From: an uncultured Candidatus Rokubacteria bacterium
Lineage (GTDB): Bacteria; Methylomirabilota; Methylomirabilia; Rokubacteriales; DASRDR01
Assembly: GCA_963805625.1 (NCBI GenBank)
Contig: CAWDVE010000013.1
Span: 610,458 to 674,457, forward strand
DNA: 64,000 nucleotides
Direction of reading: 5' to 3'
Position 1 is the first letter of the stretch; the number at the start of each line of letters is the position of its first letter. The position numbers were made by a program, and so were the translations under genes. Under the pieces are notes generated by a model. It was not told the origin of the DNA. It saw nothing but the letters and a program-made list of their open reading frames with translations, and made no database searches. Shown here one piece after another: positions 13,265 to 63,022 of the stretch.

Positions 13265-15152
13265 ATGTGCGGGATCTGCGGACAGTTCAACTTCGGGGAT
13301 CGGGCGCCCGTGGTGCGCCAGGACATCAAGGCAATGGCCGACACCATCGTTCATCGAGGCCCCGACGACGAGGGCTACCTGGTCTCCGGGCCCATCGGCC
13401 TGGGCTTCCGCCGACTGTCGATCATCGATCTCGCCGGTGGGCACCAGCCGATGGCTGACGCCGAGGAGACCGTCTGGGTCATCTTCAACGGTGAGATCTA
13501 CAACTTCCGCGAGCTACGCCGGGAGCTCGAGAGCCGGGGCCACCGCTTCCGGACGAGCTCGCGACACCGAAGCGATCGTCCACGGCTACAAGGCAGTGGG
13601 GCACCGGCGTCTTCGACCAGCTCAACGGCATGTTCGGCGTCGCGATCTGGGACGTGCGGAGGCAGCGCCTGGTCCTGGCCCGGGATGCCATGGGGATCAA
13701 GCTCGTCTACTACGCCGTACGGAACGGCATCGGTCTGGTTCGGCTCCGAAATGCGGCCGGTGCTCGCCGCGCTCGGTCTGCGCCCGGAGGTGGATCCCGT
13801 CGCCCTGAATCTCTTCCTCCGCTATCGCTACACGCCGTCGCCACTGACGATCTTCCAGGGGATCGAGAAGCTGGCGCCCGGGACGATGCTGGTGGTCGAG
13901 AATGGCCAGGCGAGGCGGGAGCGCTGGTACCGCTACACGCCGGTCCCGTTCCCGACGCCCAAGGGCGAGGACGAGGCGTGCGAGGAGCTGGTCGGGCTCT
14001 ACCGCGACGCCATGCGGCGGCACCTCATCAGCGACGTGCCGGTGGGTCTGCTCCTGAGCGGCGGCATCGACTCGGGCCTGCTCCTCGCGCTGATGAACGA
14101 GCAGGGCGGCCCGTGGCCGGCCTACACCGTCGGCTACGGGGAGAGCTTCGAGGACGACGAGCTGGCCGATGCGGCGGAGACAGCGCTGGTCCTCGGCGCC
14201 CGTCACGTCCAGGTCAAACTGGACCGTGAAGAGTTCGAGCGGTCGCTGCCCCGGATCGTCGAATGCCTCGAGGAGCCCATCGCGACGTCCTCGATCGTCC
14301 CGATGTACTTCGTCAGCCAGCGGGCCCGCCAGGACGTCAAGGTGGCCCTCATCGGCCAGGGGCCTGACGAGCTGTTCGGCGGCTACAAGCGGCATCTCGG
14401 TGTGCGGTACGGCGACTACTGGCGCCTGTTACCGCGTCCCGTACGCTCCGTGCGTCGGCTCCGCGATCACGCACTTGCCCCGGAACGAGATGCTGAAGCG
14501 GGGCGTGCTCTCGCTCGGGTTCTCCGATCGGCTCGAGCGCTACCAGCACGTGTTCTCCCTGGGGCCGGCCGAGACCGTCGATGGGCTCTTCCGGGACGGA
14601 CTCCTGCCGCCGAACCCGGGGGACCGGATCCTCGATTGCTGGAGCGATCTGCTCCCGCAGATGGAGCACACGGACGAGCTCGGCGGCCTCCAGCTCCTTG
14701 AGCTGCGATCCTCGCTGCCCGACGAGCTCCTGATGTACGCCGACAAGCTCTCGATGGCGCACAGCCTGGAGGTCCGCGTCCCGTACCTCGACCGGGTCGT
14801 CGTGGAGTACGTGCAGCGCCTGGGCGCGGGACTCAAGGTGCGCAATGGCAGCCGCAAGTGGCTCCATCGGCGGGTCTGTCGCGCCTTCCTGCCGACGCGC
14901 ATTCTCAAGCGCAAGAAGCGCGGCTTCGCCGCGAACGTCGTCGACGGCTGGTTCCGGTCGTCAGTCTCCGGAAGGCTGGAGGAGCTCTTGCTGGATCCCG
15001 CGTCCGCGATGTACAGCCTGCTACAGCCGGAGGCTGTACGGCAGCTCTTCGAGACGCATCGCTCGAGGAGCCAAGATAACCACAAGCTGCTCTTCAGCCT
15101 CGCGCTCTTCGAGCAGTGGTTGCGGTCGGCGAACCGAAGTGTCTCAGTATGA
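13265..15152 (+). CDS. asnB: Asparagine synthase-like amidotransferase (glutamine-hydrolysing), apparent frameshifts
   Basis: MCGICG nucleophile start, 'HRGPD', 'FNGEIYNF', 'LSGGIDS', 'GQGPDELFGGY', 'LEVRVPYLD', 'KKRGF'. Frame shifts near 13560-13600, ~13730 and ~14450. Confidence 0.88.
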
Positions 15153-18744: not shown

Positions 18745-20137
18745 ATGCCTCCCCTCTTCGCGCTCCTCCTCACCATTGCGTTCGTGACGTTTCTGTTTGC
18801 GCGAGATGTCAAGGAGGCTCGCGTGACGGGATCCCTGTGGATCCCTGTCTGCTGGATGCTGCTCACTTGTTCTCGGCCACTCTCGGCGTGGCTGGGTTTT
18901 GGAGGTGCGTCGTACGCCCGTCCCTCGGATCTGGCTGAGGGAGGCCCTTTGGATCGGCTGGCATATCTCTCGCTGGAGCTAGCGGCCTTGTTCGTTCTTG
19001 TCCGACGACGGGTACCCCTTGGGACCGTGCTGTCTCGCAACCTATGGTTGACCATCTTTCTGGCTTACTGCGGCCTTTCCATTGTGTGGTCGGACTTCCC
19101 CTTCGCCTCGTTCAAGCGATGGGTGAAGGTCTTGGGTCTGCCGATGATGGTGCTCCTCATCGCGACGGAGCCTGACCCTCGAGAGGCCTTCGCGCGAGTC
19201 ATGAAGCGAGCAGCATATGTTCTGATTCCGTTCTCGATCCTGCTGGTGAAGTACTATCCCGGGCTCGGTCGAGGCTATTCGCCATGGGGGGGGGAGGCTT
19301 TCAACACTGGCGTCACGACCAACAAAAACGAGCTGGGCTACGTCTGTCTGATACTGGCCTTCTTCTTCTCCTGGCATCTCCTGACGACCTTACGGGACGA
19401 GCGGACGCGGAGACGGCATCGGGAGATCGTTCTCGCGGGCGTTTTCCTGGTCATGACTGGATGGCTTCTCTTCGCGGCCAAGTAGCGCGACGTCTGTGAT
19501 GTCCCTGGTGGTCGGGCTATCGGTTGTGCTGTTTCTCGGGCGCCGTTGGGTGAACGTCAGACACGCCGGCAGTTATCTCTTGGTGGGACTACTGATCTTA
19601 TTAGTCTTTACCTTCGTCGTCCCCATGACCGATATTCTGATCAGCGCGCTCGGTCGCGACAGCACCCTGACCGGGCGTACCGAGGTGTGGGAAGCTCTGC
19701 TCGCCGTTCCCGTGAACCCAATCGTAGGTGTTGGCTTCGAGAGTTTTTGGCTCGGCGAGCCAGCCGAACGGCTCTGGGCCACGTATTGGTGGCGTCCGAA
19801 TGAGGCCCACAACGGATATCTCGAGACCTATCTCAATCTCGGCTGGGTCGGCGTCATTTTACTGGCCGGCTGGATACTCTCAGCCTTCCGGAGCGCAAGC
19901 CGCACCCTGTCCTATGACTTCGACTTCGGCCGGTTCCGAACTGGGGTTCTCGCGATCGCGCTCGTGTATAATTGGACGGAAGCGGCCTTCAGAGGCACTC
20001 ACCCGCTCTGGCTCTTGTTTTTTGTGGCCGCGATGGATTGCCGGGGCGTCAAGGCTCGGTACGGCGAACAAGTTCCGAGGGCGAGTTCACAAATACCGAT
20101 CGCGCCTGGACGCGTGCCCCACTCCGTGCCAGAATGA
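18745..20137 (+). CDS. O-antigen ligase/polymerase (Wzy/WaaL)-family membrane protein (frameshift near 19483)
   Basis: Many TM helices. 'GVTTNKNELG', 'GRDSTLTGRTEVW', 'GVGFESFW', 'NEAHNGYLETYLNLGWVG' (Wzy_C motif). Confidence 0.85.
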
Positions 20138-20262
20138 CACAGGTGGACTGACAAGAAACGCCTGTGCTGCACGACATCGTATATGAAGTGCGATCAGGCC
20201 GCGACGTACAAGTGCTCGATTCTGCAGTCGGTACGAGTTGCGGCCCGTAGACTATCAGGATC

Positions 20263-20278
20263 TGGCATCATCTGTGCT
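20263..20278 (+). promoter_or_regulatory. Candidate sigma54 promoter (-24/-12)
   Basis: TGGCATCATCTGTGCT = GG-N10-GC, in the intergenic region ~105 bp upstream of the ATG at 20385. Confidence 0.45.
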
Positions 20279-20384
20279 TTCGTGAAGCGACAGGCGAATC
20301 ACTGCCGCGTCGCCATCGAAATCTGACGATCCCGGATAGGAGCTGCGAGAGCTGCCTCGCATCGCGAGTGCAGGGAGGTCTAGA

Positions 20385-21762
20385 ATGCCGCATCGAACGA
20401 CGGAAAAGGTGAGCCTCTCAAGAGGCTTTGGGATCCTTGTCTGCGCTGCCATAGCGGTACTATCGCAGTCGAGCACAGTGTTCGCCAAGAACATCACGGC
20501 CGCCAGCTGTGGTCAGTCCGCCGTGCAGACTGCCATCAACTCGGCGCTCGATGGTGACACGATCGTCATTCCGGCAGGTTCCTGCACGTGGACTAAGACG
20601 GTCGTGGTCGGGAACGTAGATACCCACGCTGGCGTGATTCTCACCCTGCAGGGCGCGGGCATTGACCAGACCATCATCACCCACAAGGTCGATCCCAATG
20701 CTGCAACCACGTACCCGTTCCTCTCCAATGCCTTATCCTTCAATTCAAAGGACGGCGGCATCTCCCGTATTACAGGTATTACGTGGCGCGGCGGCGGCGT
20801 GAGCGACCCCTACAACAAGGGGATGATCAATGTCTTGGGCCCGTCCAGCCAGTTCCGCGTGGATCACTGCAAGTTCGTTCCGAATGGGACCTACGCTCTC
20901 GGCTTCGACGGCTATGTCCGCGGCGTAGTCGACCATAACATATTCGATGTGTCTGCTGCGCGTGGCTACGGAATTTATAGTCCATCATAGTGGTTGGGGC
21001 GGGAAAGGGGGCTACGGCGACGCATCCTGGGCAAGTGCCGATTCATTCGGAACCGCTGAAGCGATGTTCGTCGAGGACAACACGTTTACGAACAATCAAT
21101 CCGTCGCTGGCTGGTATTTCGCCAACGACGGCTGGAGCGGCGACCGGGTCGTCTATCGCTACAACGCCTATACGAACACGGTCTGGACCAACCACGGTAG
21201 CGAAACAGGAGGACGTTGGCGAAGTGAGCGGCAATACGAGGTATATAACAACAGGTTTTCGCTGACTAATGGCGCTGGTGTATCTACACTCGTGGGAAGT
21301 CGGGGTGGCACGGGTGTGGTGTACAACAACACCGCCTCGCTCACGAATGGCGCATACATCAACCACTTTAGCGACTTGTCAGACTATCGCGCCACCGACT
21401 GGACGCGGGCCTATTCGCCGTGGGGCTGGTGCAACGGGGCGAACGTCTGGGATGGCAATTCAGACAAATCTGGGTACCCGTGCCTGGACCAACCAGGCCG
21501 GGGCCGCGGGAACCTGCTGTCGGGTATCGACCCGACCCCGCAAGCGTGGCCGCAACAGGTGAGCTCACCGGTATACGCGTGGAATAACACCGTTAACGGC
21601 GCGCTAGCGAAGCTCGTCTCGAATGCGCCGGCGGTGGTCGCCGAGAATCGCGACTTCTTTAACAGCGCCAAGCCCGGCTACACGGCCTACCAGTACCCAC
21701 ATCCCCTTGTCACGTCGTCAGCGACGCTTCCAGCACCGACGGACCTCCAAGTCACGCCGTGA
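20385..21762 (+). CDS. Secreted right-handed beta-helix (pectin-lyase-like) protein (frameshift near 20980)
   Basis: GGAGG RBS, signal peptide ending VFA, 'VQTAINSALDGDTIVIPAGSCTW', 'LQGAGIDQT', Asn-ladder repeats (VDHN, EDNTF, YNN). C-terminus 'PGYTAYQYPHPL...LPAPTDLQVTP'. Confidence 0.72.
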
Positions 21763-21950
21763 TGGGATCCCTCGGCCGGTGATGGGAGGTTGACGCCCAA
21801 CGTGACACGAGGCCAGCGCGTAGCACTGTAGGCGGGCAGTCCCAGTGTCGCCACGTGTTCGGGAGTTAGGCCCACAGGCTAGCTGACTCCGCTCGATTCG
21901 CCCGCCTGGTAGGCGCAGTTACAGCGATAGCACTGTGTACACGCCTCCTC

Positions 21951-23121
21951 GTGCTCGTCGCTTTCTGGCCGACCTGGCTCTGGCAGTCCGGTCACATCCA
22001 GGACGACTGGAACAAGCTGGCGATCGATTGGATCGACTTCGGAACGTTCGGTTTCACCCCCGGGGTACCCAGCATACAGCGCGGACCTATGTTTCCGGTC
22101 TTGCTGACCCCGCTTTACCTCCTATTCGGTGAGCACTATGCGGCGATGGAGTATCGCCTTGCTTCTCTTCGATACTGGCACGGTCCTCCTTCTCATGTTG
22201 CTCGGACGTAGACTGTGGGGACAGAGGGCCGCGCTCCTCGCGGGTTTCTTTCATGCGATCTACCTTGCCGATCGTTTATTACACAGCGAACATCGAGCAG
22301 TTCACCACCGTTCTTCCCGTTCGTATTTCTGTGGTTCTACCTTGTCTCGGTCGGGCGACCAAAAGGAGGTGGACACGCGCCACTACGTCATGTTGGGGCT
22401 GGTGGCCGGCATTCTCATGCTGAGCAAATCGGTCTACCTACCCGTGGTCATCGGTTCGGCCGCTGGTCTCCTGTGGTTTGATCGGAAGCGACATTTAAGA
22501 GTCGCTCTCGGACACGTGACGGTTCTACTCGTCGTGGCAGGTCTGCTGCTCGCACCCTGGAGCTATCGTAACTATCTCGTCAGTGAAGGCCGATTCATTC
22601 TGGTTCAGTCATATTTCTGGGAACCTTTCTGGCAGAAGTTCGTGATCTCGGACCTTGACGCGCGTGAAGGCATGCTGCGGCCAGCGGGAAGAACGCTCCA
22701 GTATCTACTCGCTCGACAGAAGGAGCTCATCGAAGGATTGGGAGATGGCAATGTCGAGCGACTCTCCGGGCCCGCCAAAGAGCTCTATCGCGAGAACGCC
22801 TTCAAGGGACAAGTCCTCGATTGGATCAGAAGGAATCCGGCTTCATACGTACGGAACGTGCGAAGCAATGTGTGGTACTTCTGGGTCGGCGCGGAGAATC
22901 TTCAGAAGACGCTGCTCATGGCTGGCATGCAGCTGCCTCTGCTTGGCGCTGCGACTATGGGTCTGTGGTTGCGTTCCGATACCGTCGGATTCGTACGTGT
23001 GCGATTCGGCGTGGCACTCGTAGTGATTCTGTGGGCCGAGCACACGATTATCTTTGCTTGGGGACGTTTCTCTCTCGACACCGTTCCGGTGCTGGCCGTT
23101 CGTCTTCGGAGTAGGTCTTGA
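21951..23121 (+). CDS. ArnT/PMT-like (GT-C) membrane glycosyltransferase, several frameshifts, ends approximate
   Basis: 'RGPMFP', 'LGRRLWGQRAALLAGFFHAIY', 'LLAPWSYRNY', 'WIRRNPASY', 'RFSLDTVP', multiple TM segments spread over several frames. Confidence 0.65.
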
Positions 23122-24941: not shown

Positions 24942-26405
24942 CAGCCCGTGGTGGAAGTGCCGAGACTCAGCGAGCGGGCGCGACGATCCATGGCGTGGGC
25001 AGGACGGGGCGGATCGGTTCCCAGATCGTCCAGAGACGCGTCACGGGCGCCCAGAGGTGATCGGCAAGTGCTCCGAGGGCGATGTCGAGCGCACCCGGGG
25101 CGAAACGGCGTCCCTGCAGCCCTCGCGGCGTGCCGCGCCCGAACGCGTGCCGCATGACGAGGCCGAGATTGAAGGCGCTCGCGTGCACGAGCAGTCGCTT
25201 GAGGATGTTCGGGTGCCCGCGCAAGTGCGTGCGCCGGAGACCGCCGGTGTCATAGACGTGGGCGAACGAGCGTTCGACGTACTCGCCGCGGCAGCGCAGC
25301 AGCCGCTTGCCGCGCGCGCCGCGCACCCGCCGGCGATTGCCGTAGACCGGACCCTGCGCCTCCGGCGTCTTCGTCCAGTCCCGGCGGCCACGCTCGGGCT
25401 CGGCGATGTAGGATCGGACCTCGACCGCCTGGAGGTCGACCATCGTTTGGTTGCTGTGATACCCCTTGTCGGCGACGATCTCGGTCAGCTCCGCCGGCGC
25501 GTCGCGCTCCGCGTGCGCCGCCTCGATCTGTTCCGCGGCGGCGATGGCGGTCTCCACGAGGCTCGTCGTATCCCCGACATCCGCGCCCTGCAGCGTGACC
25601 GCCACGAGCGCGCCGCTGTCCAGATCCACGGCGTGCTCGGCCTTGTGCGCCAGGTGCGTGCGCCCGTCTTTCATCTTGGTGATCTTCGCGTCCGGATCGA
25701 ACGGGTTCTGCCAGTCCCTGTTCGACGTCCGCTTCTTCCGCCGGCGATCGAGGCGCGCCAAGGCCTCACGGGTCGGCGTCTTGATGCCCGACTCGACCGC
25801 GAGCCGGGTCAGGAACTCCTGGTAGCGCTCGCCGGTGTCGCGCCGCACGATGCTGCGCATGGCGGCGTTCGCCTCCAGCGTCGTCGCGTCGATCGCGACG
25901 GTGCGCCCCGTGAGCAGCCCGGCCGCGACCAGGCGCTCCTGCACCCACGTGAAGATGGCCCGATGGATCTCGACGGGGATCAAGCGTCGCGTGCGCGAGA
26001 TCGTCGAATGATCCGGGGCCGCGGTGTCGAGGCCCAGCCCGACGAAGCTGCGCACGGCGAGCGAATCGGCCGCGCGCCAGGCGATGCCCCGCTCCGAGTC
26101 GAGCCCCTCGAAGTAGCCGAGCAGCAGCAACCGGAAGTACCGTCCCGGCAGCAGGCTCGGTCGCCCCATCACCGGCGCGTAGCATGGCCGACACTGCGCC
26201 TCCGCGAACCGGTCGAAGCCGGCCTCGTCGAGGATGGCGTTCAGCCGCGCGTAAAAGGGATGGCCCGGCGACACCGGGAGGTCGCGTGGTCGGAATCCAC
26301 ATCAGCGCTTGCTCGCTCGTGCGTTTGCCCATCGCCATGCGTCGCAGTGTACGCGGCCCACACGCGGCCATGGAAGACCTATTCGCCGACTTTCACCACG
26401 GGCTG
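24942..26405 (-). mobile_element. Complete insertion sequence, IS1182-type (IS5/IS4-like DDE)
   Basis: 17-bp terminal inverted repeats CAGCCCGTGGTGGAAGT (24942-24958) and ACTTTCACCACGGGCTG (26389-26405), 1 mismatch. 4-bp TTAG direct repeats at 24938-24941 and 26406-26409. Confidence 0.9.
24967..26338 (-). CDS. DDE transposase (one frameshift near 26285)
   Basis: 'GRPSLLP..YFRLLLLGYFEGLDSERGI', 'PDHSTISR', 'IDAT', 'DPDA', 'ADKGY', 'VERSFAH'. N-terminus MAMGKR..MWIPT is in a shifted frame. Confidence 0.9.
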
Positions 26406-28272: not shown

Positions 28273-29274
28273 GTGCTCCCGAACCTGCTGCGGTGTGTCT
28301 CGTTCGCAATACTGTCCGCGGTCGCTGGCTGTGACCTGGCAGTGAACGAGCCGCCGAGGAGCTCTCTGCCGCCAACGATACTCGTGCCGTTGCCCGAACA
28401 CCGCGGGCTGGCCGCGCGCTACCCGAGGGACACACGGCTGGCGACCGATCCGGCCGTGGTCTTTGCCGACGATGTCGAATCGTCCACCACCGGGGTGCTG
28501 CCGGACGGGTTGGCCGCCGAGCAACGGACTGCCTGGAACAACCCGTGGGATCGCGCGTGGGGCGGTTCGCGGATCACCGATGATCCTGAACACGTGCATG
28601 CCGGGCACCGGGCGCTCGAGTTCCGCATGAACGGGCCGGGGGCCATCGGAGTGGGGAAATACATTCGCCGCGGGTTCGACCGACTCTTCTTTCGTTACTA
28701 CATCAAGTACGACGACGCATTCCCCGGCGCACACCATGTGGGCGCTGGGATCGCGGCCCGCGCGCCGGGCGTGCCAGATGCGAATCCTGGCGTCAAGCCA
28801 GACGGCACCAATCAGTTCGATGTGTTGCTTGACCACTGGAGCTTTGACGCGGGGGGGCCGCCGCCCGGACACCTGGTGGCGTACGTGTACCACATGGACC
28901 AACAGCACCAGTGGGGAGAACAGTTCTATCCCTCAGGCAGGACACTACCGGGAGTAAACGGTGCGCGGGGGATCTTCGGCCCCTCGTTCGTCCCGCGGAA
29001 GGACTTCGTACCCGTGCGCGGCCGCTGGTATTGCTACGAGTTCATGGCGCAGGCCAACACGCCGGGACAGCGCGACGGGCGCGTGGCGTTCTGGGTCGAC
29101 GGACGTATCGCCGCGGACTTCCCGAATCTGCGATTCAGAAGTGTGGACGCACTCAAAATCAACCGTGTGGACGTCGGCATGTATGAAAGCCGGCACAACG
29201 GACTCCACCGCGTATGGATTGACGATGTCGTCGTGGCCACAGCCTATATCGGGCCGATGACCGCAGATCGGTAG
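28273..29274 (+). CDS. Lipoprotein with concanavalin/polysaccharide-lyase-like beta-sandwich
   Basis: Lipobox 'VAGC'. 'GLAARYPRD...DPAVVFADD', 'LFFRYYIKYD', 'GRWYCYEFM..NTPGQRDG..FWVDG', 'WIDDVVVAT.YIGP'. Confidence 0.65.
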   Translation: MLPNLLRCVSFAILSAVAGCDLAVNEPPRSSLPPTILVPLPEHRGLAARYPRDTRLATDPAVVFADDVESSTTGVLPDGLAAEQRTAWNNPWDRAWGGSRITDDPEHVHAGHRALEFRMNGPGAIGVGKYIRRGFDRLFFRYYIKYDDAFPGAHHVGAGIAARAPGVPDANPGVKPDGTNQFDVLLDHWSFDAGGPPPGHLVAYVYHMDQQHQWGEQFYPSGRTLPGVNGARGIFGPSFVPRKDFVPVRGRWYCYEFMAQANTPGQRDGRVAFWVDGRIAADFPNLRFRSVDALKINRVDVGMYESRHNGLHRVWIDDVVVATAYIGPMTADR

Positions 29275-29434
29275 CAACCGACGACGTGGTGCAGCGGCGT
29301 GGGACGTGGAATACGCCTTCACCACTGTAGAGGGCAGAGCGCAGGGCGTTGACGTCGTCGCCTGCCACCGCAATTTGCGAGGGGGTCCGCTATCTCGACG
29401 TTGGCGCGGGGTACGGCGGGTTCCCAATTGGCTT

Positions 29435-29950
29435 TCAGTCGAGCGGGGGGCCGCCGATCCCGATTTGCTGGCTGTCTCGGGCGCGCTGCTGCGCGACGCC
29501 CCGTGCACCGCCAAGATGATCCCGAGGGACGCGATGGACGCCGCCTTCAGGGCGTCGCTCGGCAGCTTCGACGTAATTACCTGCAACGACGTTATCATCG
29601 CCCGGAAAGCGGGCCTGGGCGACATGCACGAGGCATTCGCGGGGGTATGCGTCCAAGATCGTCCACACTCGAATCGCGTGCCCCGTGGCCAACGTGTCAA
29701 GCAGGAAATCCATCGTCCAACGCTCGTCGGGCCGCGTGGCCGGGTTGCCGACCCCGACGCGAGCTCACGCTCCGATGCCGCTTCGGCCGACACCGCTTCG
29801 ACGTCAGGCCCTCGTCGGTGTACAGCCGGCAGATCCGCTTGTGATTCACCCGCCAGCCCTCACGCCGGAGCAACACATGGAGCCGCCGATACTCGTACCG
29901 GACGCGCACCGCCGACAACTCCCGCAGCCGGCTTCGGAGGGACGCCTGGG
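29435..29950 (-). pseudogene. IS3-family transposase (OrfB) remnant
   Basis: 'YRRLHVLLRREGWRVNHKRICRLYTDEGL' and 'MDFLLDTLATGHAIRVWTILDAYPRECL' lie in broken frames. Confidence 0.85.
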
Positions 29951-30027
29951 GCGGTCGCCCGATTGGTCTGGATGCCCGACGCGCGACGCTCAGGGCGCGG
30001 TAGGCACGGCGCAGGTGGAGCAGGAGC

Positions 30028-30526
<499 letters not shown>

Positions 30527-61948: not shown

Positions 61949-62887
61949 TCAGAGTCGGCGGGAGGGGAATGCTCTGGGGGTCTTCATCAAGACGATCTGT
62001 CCCGGACCTTCACTTCTTCCCCTGCCCTTCGAGAAGGTGGCCGAGATGGAAGTAGCCGCGGTTATCTGCAGCGCACAGGTCCCCGTGCCGCTGCACGCTC
62101 CGCCCCACCCGACGAACCTGGCGCCGTTGACGGGCGTCGCCGTCAGGGTCACGGCCGTACCGCTCGCGTAGCTTTCCGAGCAGTCGGAGCCGCAGTCGAT
62201 CCCCGCAGGGCCGCTGGTCACTGTGCCGGGGCCGGACTTGGCCGCGGAGAGCGTGTAGGAGGCGGAGGGTGCCGCAACGGGTGCCGCAACGAAGGTCGCG
62301 CTGACGCTGACCGGCGCGTTGCCGGTGAGCGTGCAGGGGTCGGTGCCGGCGCAGCCGCCCCCCCCCCAGCCGCCGAACGTCGAGTCGCTCGCGGCGCTGG
62401 CGGACAGCGTCACCACGGCGCCGCTCGGGTAGGTCTCGACGCAGTCCGTGCCGCAGCTGATCCCGCTCGGGCTGCTATTCACCATGCCTTTTCCCGTGCC
62501 GGCCAGGCTCACCGTGACGACGAGACCCGTGGCGAGGGTCCCGCAGGCCTCATTCGAGTACGCCGAGACGCTCGTGTCGTTGTAGGCCTGGACCCGGTAA
62601 CAGTAGGTGGTGCCCTCGAGGGCGCTGGCGTCGACGTACGAGGTGATTCCAGCTCTGGAGGTCGAGCTCGCATAGGCGCCGGCCGTGCCCGTCTTGCGCT
62701 CGATTCGGAACGCGGCCTCACCTCCGGAATTGTCGGCCCACGAGAGCTGGAACTGGCCAGCGCCGGCTACCCCGGGCGCCAGGACAGCGGCCAGCGCGAG
62801 CAAAATCGCCGGCCCACGGGATCGGAAGCGCGAACTCCAGCGCTGGAACGATGATAGGAGCAGGCTGGACGACCCTAGGACAGGCAT
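61949..62887 (-). CDS. Secreted FN3 plus two InlB-B-repeat-like domain surface protein
   Basis: GGAGG RBS, signal peptide, 'LSWADNS..FRIERK..YCYRVQAYN..SAYSNE', two 'G.V.S.P.GI.CG.DC.E.Y.SG..VTL.A...F.GWGG.C.GT..C' repeats. Confidence 0.85.
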   Translation of the reverse strand: MPVLGSSSLLLSSFQRWSSRFRSRGPAILLALAAVLAPGVAGAGQFQLSWADNSGGEAAFRIERKTGTAGAYASSTSRAGITSYVDASALEGTTYCYRVQAYNDTSVSAYSNEACGTLATGLVVTVSLAGTGKGMVNSSPSGISCGTDCVETYPSGAVVTLSASAASDSTFGGWGGGGCAGTDPCTLTGNAPVSVSATFVAAPVAAPSASYTLSAAKSGPGTVTSGPAGIDCGSDCSESYASGTAVTLTATPVNGARFVGWGGACSGTGTCALQITAATSISATFSKGRGRSEGPGQIVLMKTPRAFPSRRL

Positions 62888-62930: not shown

Positions 62931-63022
62931 CTTCCCTTCGGCAGCCCGGCTCCCAGGCCGTCTGGCCTGGCCCGTGGCTTTGCGTCCCCGCCTCGCGACG
63001 GGTTTGCCCTTGTCGGGGGAAG
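62931..63022 (-). ncRNA. c-di-GMP-I (GEMM) riboswitch
   Basis: Minus strand CUUCCCCCGACAAGGGCAAACCCGUC-GCGA-GGCGGGGACGCAAAGCCACGGGCC...GGGAGCCGGGCUGCCGAAGGGAAG. Contains the GGCAAAC, GNRA loop, GACGCAAAGCC and GGGYUGCC signatures, in the 5' leader of the gene at 62887. Confidence 0.9.

Follow-up and report, generated by a model that had tools for sequence, protein, structure and literature searches.

A secreted right-handed beta-helix protein encoded in the window (the whole stretch of 64,000 nucleotides that was analyzed) terminates in a lone first strand (strand A) of an FN3 (fibronectin type III) domain, and a second secreted protein of the same window carries an FN3 domain that lacks strand A. 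On the sequence level, both halves, denoted here as plug (or tail) and socket, are found to exist, to be conserved, and to co-occur across genomes and operons. It is rather probable that the tail completes the strand-less FN3 in trans and docks the enzyme on a matrix scaffold, the binding being putative. That the window tail and the socket protein starting at 62887 form an exact cognate pair is a tentative proposal with slightly less than an even chance, lowered because three paralogues of the socket compete. The features concerned are:

20385..21762, forward strand: secreted right-handed beta-helix protein, putative enzyme (458 aa in read-through; homologues; model of P0005)
20385..20486, forward strand: signal-peptide-like N-terminus (cleavage placed by eye after VFA; best 11-residue hydropathy 2.95)
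21709..21726, forward strand: Ser/Thr linker behind YPHPL, with which the catalytic domain ends in conserved fashion (homologue comparison)
21727..21762, forward strand: orphan FN3 strand A (LPAPTDLQVTP) plus stop, the putative plug (motif, homologues)
61949..62887, reverse strand: signal peptide, strand-A-less FN3 and two divergent InlB B-repeats (sequence, homologues)
62528..62755, reverse strand: putative socket, an FN3 domain of strands B-C-C'-E-F-G without A; its F and G strands share an invariant Cys pair
62936..63017, reverse strand: c-di-GMP-I-GGC riboswitch ahead of the socket gene (67.1 bits; gathering threshold 59)

The open reading frames (ORFs) 20385-20990 and 20947-21762 represent a single gene, split by one surplus base near 20980. 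A related contig of 229 bases from another sample, which differs in six other letters, lacks the base at 20980, and read-through across it yields 458 residues with a signal-like start. Positions 21709-21759 encode VTSSATLPAPTDLQVTP, followed by a TGA stop at 21760-21762. The first-pass annotation had described the protein as ending in LPAPTDLQVTP with no further domain, in agreement with sequence and homologues, and had read this end as PxxPTxLxV; the assignment to the strand-A type holds, the first residue of the pattern does not, since the window copy has Leu (LPAPTDLQV). Among 87 homologue tails, this position is Pro in 70 and Leu in five. The related contigs leave 21037-21761 uncovered, and the stop was judged from homologues; by this measure the stop at 21760 is real, because homologues including P0005 (82% identical and intact, ending in LPAPTGLQVTP) terminate at the same place. 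No FN3 match was found 3' of the stop in any frame, and a promoter/terminator scan of 20100-22200 gave no signal exceeding shuffles. None of the 20 sequencing runs listed shared half the words with the window, and no RNA runs were among those listed.

An AlphaFold2 model of P0005 (84 sequences) displays a beta-helix with a mean pLDDT of 91.4, in which the last 16 residues are devoid of secondary structure (block pLDDT 48-55). Folding of the tail onto its own protein, named earlier as an outcome that would speak against docking, is thus not seen in this model. Best Foldseek matches were alginate lyases, PL6 lyases, chondroitinase B, and GH87 glucanases (10-14% identical, with E between 1e-5 and 1e-3); the model shows the right-handed parallel beta-helix known from PL6 and GH87, and the fold resembles PL6/PL31-type lyases and GH87. 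Invariant Arg, Glu, His, and Asp residues are present in the family. Fold and locus make a polysaccharide-active enzyme likely, its activity being predicted.

The gene resides in a polysaccharide cluster, with glycosyltransferases, Wzy, a flippase, Wzt, an exosortase, and a PEP-CTERM protein among the 37 window ORFs scanned against Pfam. Between 13265 and 24665, single frame changes or stops disrupt many genes, e.g. an asparagine-synthase-like gene (13265-15152), wzy (18745-20137), and a glycosyltransferase gene (21951-23121), which fits an assembly prone to errors; the base at 22146, too, is absent from a related contig. Transposase-like ORFs (24967-26274 and 29306-30490) interrupt the cluster on either side of the PEP-CTERM and PL14-like genes.

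A search with the beta-helix protein found 404 homologues, and tails were counted on the 120 listed. The motif xxxPxx[LVIF]x[VILA] lies at most seven residues from the stop in 87 of these 120, compared with 48 of 1798 windows taken from inside these proteins, and exactly one residue follows it in 52 of the 87. The linker before the tail comprises 2-24 residues across homologues (mode 10). From 80 metagenome loci (the best 80 of 527) and 79 genome loci (from the best 80 of 138), 155 beta-helix ORFs were obtained whose domain end could be read; 63 score as tailed, 89 score below the tail threshold (several of them borderline), and three were assigned to neither group, which makes the tag optional. 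In six loci (L105, L112, L113, L116, L150, and L162), the position of the tail behind YPHPL runs into a whole FN3 domain, which identifies the tail as an FN3 strand A. At L162, two whole FN3 domains and a PL14-like domain are present, yet the tail is still terminal, and it is likewise kept as the last element in P0078, P0089, L131, and L379. The last motif position (position 9) is V/I in 81 of 90 tails; in intact FN3 domains at those loci, the A strand has V/I there in 34 of 140 and Ala in 83 of 140, a comparison of related sequences whose P value is overstated. Sequence relationships thus support a tail that is homologous to FN3 strand A and under its own selection; the tail of the window protein matches the consensus and is retained in the nearest homologues.

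The same tail terminates proteins that are unrelated to the beta-helix family. It was found in six of 5301 unrelated ORFs of at least 100 residues, one of them probably spurious, and at four of 1753 true ends versus none of 7012 pseudo-ends. Carriers comprise PL14-like, choice-of-anchor Q beta-helix, alginate-lyase-like, metallophosphatase, phytase, Kelch, and GH56-like proteins, the last five of which were retrieved with a DNA pattern that itself requires V/I/M; by record titles, they are distributed over many phyla with different envelopes. The slot of the tail is occupied by a dockerin in P0076 and by a T9SS type A tail in L143; P0023 has a weak MYXO-CTERM match there, below cut-off. The tail region contains no transmembrane helix (best 19-residue hydropathy 0.29 within the last 45 residues), and the tail has no NCBIfam match. 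In the window itself, a PL14-like secreted protein (28273-29274, forward strand) stops five residues after YIGPM without a tail; homologues of it (L160, L164, and L162) terminate in the tail. IS-like sequence lies 3' of this gene, where a tag may have been lost.

The first-pass annotation had ascribed the complementary defect to the riboswitch-controlled protein starting at 62887, and this is borne out by the model of a homologue (P0125, 97% identical) and by FN3 alignments, in which strand A is absent. In the window protein, a hydrophobic signal-like stretch is followed immediately by GQFQLSW, and the Pfam fn3 match, below cut-off, covers model positions 15-80 of 84. Residues 42-121 of the P0125 model align with fibronectin FN3 modules over 77-78 residues (Z 10.5-10.7, rmsd 2.1); fibcon is matched from its residue 14 onward, and FN3tt from its residue 18. 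The domain has an FN3 fold with six strands in the model instead of seven strands including A within one chain, i.e. the Ig-like sandwich short of one strand that characterizes acceptors of donor strands. Compared with P0125, the window protein shows a 24-residue extension (61949-62030) and an unlike stretch around 62660 in strand C', both probably due to small indels.

Among 37 homologues of the socket domain, inspected by eye, 31 begin at strand B directly after the signal-like stretch, one is a strand-less C-terminal domain, four possess strand A, and one is a fragment; strand A is thus absent in 32 of 37. The Leu/Val at position W-2 is retained in 28 of 28 strand-less domains, and the Cys pair on strands F and G is found in 30 of 30 evaluated signal-peptide forms as opposed to one of four forms with strand A. 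The pair is a likely disulfide and may stabilize the six-strand domain while it is unfilled. The surface location originally assigned to the scaffold is not backed by the protein itself, on which no transmembrane, PEP-CTERM, or lipoprotein anchor is seen; a hydrophobic C-terminal anchor is missing from both the window protein and P0125. Three or four Lys/Arg occur among the last eight residues in 15 of 17 homologues of the same architecture, and one may speculate that this basic C-terminus binds an anionic polymer.

The source genome (7.27 Mb, 28 contigs) harbors four strand-less FN3 genes, two of them behind a riboswitch of the c-di-GMP-I-GGC class. The three paralogues are located at C16:299471-307118 (two) and C21:330762-332537 (one) of G000. 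The C16 pair lies on either side of a tRNA and an integrase-like gene, and one has the same riboswitch class; the one on C21 lies after a subtilase-like gene, and both products end in FG-GAP-like repeats. In the relatives, a c-di-GMP riboswitch precedes socket genes in three of 14 loci scanned.

A family of 105-116 residues (P0162-P0177; also L333 and L542) combines both halves, i.e. a signal peptide, strands B-G, and then the tail. FN3 strands A and G run in the same direction. Between the Ser that opens strand G and PxxP, these proteins have 12-13 residues, compared with 14-17 in intact tandem repeats (L162, L164); given this topology and a spacing that offers no additional linker, the tail should be unable to return to the domain it belongs to in the native direction. 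The two-half proteins therefore look like frame-shifted FN3 repeats that would need completion in trans, and those at L205:478-882, L333:1132-1533, and L542 are candidate self-polymerizing subunits. Language-model look-alikes of a two-half protein include candidate phage clusters of 116-119 residues; P0177 had no match in 50,697 phage records.

A scoring matrix run over the 90,981 stop-to-stop segments of at least 40 residues detected one tail in the source genome, facing four sockets; shorter segments contained none that was convincing, and none of the four socket proteins bears a tail itself. The top matrix match on C19 was rejected as an off-frame ORF overlying another gene. Such a genome-wide scan with co-occurrence had been put forward as a check of docking; its outcome is divided, since sockets are present and a co-occurrence trend across genomes is seen, but the ratio of four sockets to one tail here runs the other way.

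For the comparison across genomes, 22 genomes with a tagged locus and 22 with an untagged beta-helix were hand-picked from the 79 genome loci, leaving aside borderline tails, duplicates, and the remaining loci. Both sets were searched with a mixed FN3 profile, evaluated among the matches listed (seven and 114 more lay beyond), and matches starting late in the model were inspected in the sequence of 60 regions. The four unresolved positive genomes and 20 negative ones were additionally searched with a strand-less profile (30 loci per search, of up to 76 matches). A strand-less FN3 was regarded as confirmed when located after a signal peptide or C-terminally after a plain linker. By this definition, it occurs in 19 of 22 tagged-locus genomes versus four of 22 untagged ones in these hand-picked sets, which are confounded by taxon (seven Nitrospira-type genomes among the positives) and share genomes with profile rows, so that the co-occurrence is a trend and not a test. 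Among the matches of both profiles, no strand-less FN3 was found in the tagged-locus genomes G064, G073, and G075. The untagged genomes with a strand-less FN3 are G086, G087, G095, and G099; in G087, three signal-peptide sockets are accompanied by four tagged proteins that belong to other families, and no tail was found in the other three genomes. The taxon of the G087 loci is uncertain, since an identical contig of 29,941 bases (L110, L111) is recorded for two genomes whose phylum names differ. In the Chloroflexota genomes G095 and G099, a divergent strand-less FN3 is preceded by a hydrophobic segment at the N-terminus, and the C-terminus carries a hydrophobic anchor (L509:140-640, L518:1399-1878); secreted proteins of both genomes often terminate in a YLP..K motif and not in the tail, which might be a different plug.

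Both halves are also neighbors at the gene level. Socket genes lie directly upstream of the tagged gene in G039 and G062, adjoin it directly in G079, are 2.5 kb away in G063, and share one locus with it in G004 and G014. Signal-peptide sockets were confirmed in eight of 60 relatives. Tagged secreted proteins were found in three socket-bearing relatives (two in G004, one each in G014 and G039), each on the contig of the socket gene, and the tagged protein of G030 is a small two-half protein. In relatives without sockets, the patterns used, which are of low sensitivity, confirmed no tagged protein. Scans covering 732 kb and patterns of limited sensitivity revealed no tails in G008 (seven sockets), G019 (five), G050 (two), G007, and G006. 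Beyond these, the tail pattern gave candidate in-frame matches in relatives, one in G008 (C36) and three others without loci; other matches were discarded as out of frame or as lying in non-secreted or spurious ORFs.

It is supposed that the beta-helix protein and the socket protein are exported before strand insertion. The tail would then insert into the groove of a strand-A-less FN3 on another secreted protein, its Leu and Val packing against strand B, and the seven-strand sandwich would be completed in trans. Relatives contain enzyme-FN3 fusions, of which the product would be a non-covalent counterpart. As partner, the protein under c-di-GMP control, encoded at a distance of 41 kb within the same exopolysaccharide/exosortase cluster, is the likeliest, with the three paralogues as alternatives. 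The enzyme would thereby be coupled to a c-di-GMP-induced scaffold, in a complex that would lie within the extracellular matrix and not be tied to the membrane because the anchor is not seen.

The excess of sockets over tails, in the source genome (4:1) as well as in its kin, argues against docking. Together with the Cys pair, it would suit tails that act as C-terminal sorting or export signals and strand-less FN3 domains that are stable with six strands, independently of any tail, and happen to be frequent in the lineages concerned. The tail is indeed always terminal and sits in the slot of known signals (T9SS tail, MYXO-CTERM), and the window locus encodes an exosortase and a PEP-CTERM protein. 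Such a signal is nevertheless unlikely, as a single machine would hardly serve carriers from many phyla with different envelopes and the tail has neither a hydrophobic helix nor an NCBIfam match. It would also leave unexplained why the signal is exactly the strand absent from the neighboring domains, why socket and plug genes are adjacent, and why small proteins contain both halves.

Decidedly improbable is that docking operates as proposed while the window pair is non-cognate or decaying, the enzyme having arrived with the polysaccharide cluster and the sockets being filled by other donors or by none. The beta-helix gene, queried with its C-terminal half, is found in only one of 60 relatives, with a more distant tagged one in G014; the PL14-like neighbor is without a tail though its homologues have one; and the window is rich in frame breaks and IS remnants. 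The fit of the window tail to the consensus, its preservation in the closest homologues, and the recurrence of tagged and socket genes in a common locus in G004, G014, and G039 speak against decay. A non-functional remnant of a lost FN3, for which the whole-FN3 fusions at the tail position could be cited, is very improbable: stops cluster one to seven residues after the motif in 87 homologues and also in unrelated families, tails persist behind whole FN3 domains, and their residue preference is unlike that of intact A strands. This reading is largely refuted by the conservation of the position across unrelated families. Least credible of all is a stop at 21760 that is an assembly error, or a tail folding onto the beta-helix, since P0005 and most homologues stop alike, no FN3 follows, and the modeled tail is unstructured, even though the assembly is error-prone, the gene has a surplus base, and the stop lies outside the related contigs.

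Docking of the tail in a strand-less FN3 could be one instance of a widespread split-FN3 connector, a generalization for which the chances are evenly balanced. Tails of about ten residues would plug unrelated enzymes into sockets on scaffolds, lipoproteins, and sorted surface proteins, and two-half proteins would serve as self-polymerizing spacers, in a chaperone-free, cellulosome-like, and c-di-GMP-controlled system of many uncultured phyla. Annotation would have overlooked the pair, since a tag of this length falls short of what a domain model needs and the socket passes for an ordinary FN3. If the binding holds true, it represents a general enzyme-docking code, distinct from cohesin-dockerin pairs and from enzymatic sorting, and would explain how secreted polysaccharide enzymes are organized in the matrix of many soil and sediment bacteria. 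Scaffold-enzyme pairs would then be predictable from sequence, and a natural peptide-tag/catcher pair would be at hand.

In cellulosomes, a C-terminal tag on diverse secreted enzymes, the dockerin, binds a scaffold module, the cohesin. The tail resembles dockerins in being a C-terminal tag of diverse secreted enzymes, and a dockerin replaces it in P0076; here, the tag measures about ten residues and would bind by completing a fold, and P0001, P0005, P0003, and P0125 gave no dockerin or cohesin match in Pfam or NCBIfam. With PEP-CTERM, MYXO-CTERM, and T9SS type A tails, it shares the place as last and interchangeable element of diverse secreted proteins; unlike these sorting signals, it has no transmembrane helix, basic cluster, or folded CTD. 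C-terminal donor strands are found in type V pili. Searches of the PDB by sequence and fold returned ordinary FN3, titin, and pilin entries, with no title pointing to a split FN3, and no description of split-FN3 enzyme docking was found in the literature covered, mostly open-access papers.

Donor-strand systems are described as strand-deficient Ig-like sandwiches completed by another chain, with chaperone-usher pili, TasA, TLP-1 fibrils, and CPR Pam pili as examples (PMC11494351, PMC13278184). In TLP-1, a like subunit donates its N-terminal strand, and a filament results (PMC11494351, PMC13278184). The likeness lies in the acceptor sandwich short of one strand and in its proposed filling from another chain, whereas in the present case unrelated enzymes would supply the donor with their C-terminus, and it is an FN3 fold that is short of a strand, namely A. 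Subunits of donor-strand pili carry donor and acceptor and polymerize, which does not apply to the window pair, and no chaperone or usher genes were among the 37 window ORFs scanned against Pfam, a subset of all window ORFs. Anastellin is an incomplete FN3 that engages other FN3 modules via beta-strand exchange (PMC13233970). It is a fragment of an animal matrix protein, whereas the plug and the socket are gene-encoded complementary halves on different proteins.
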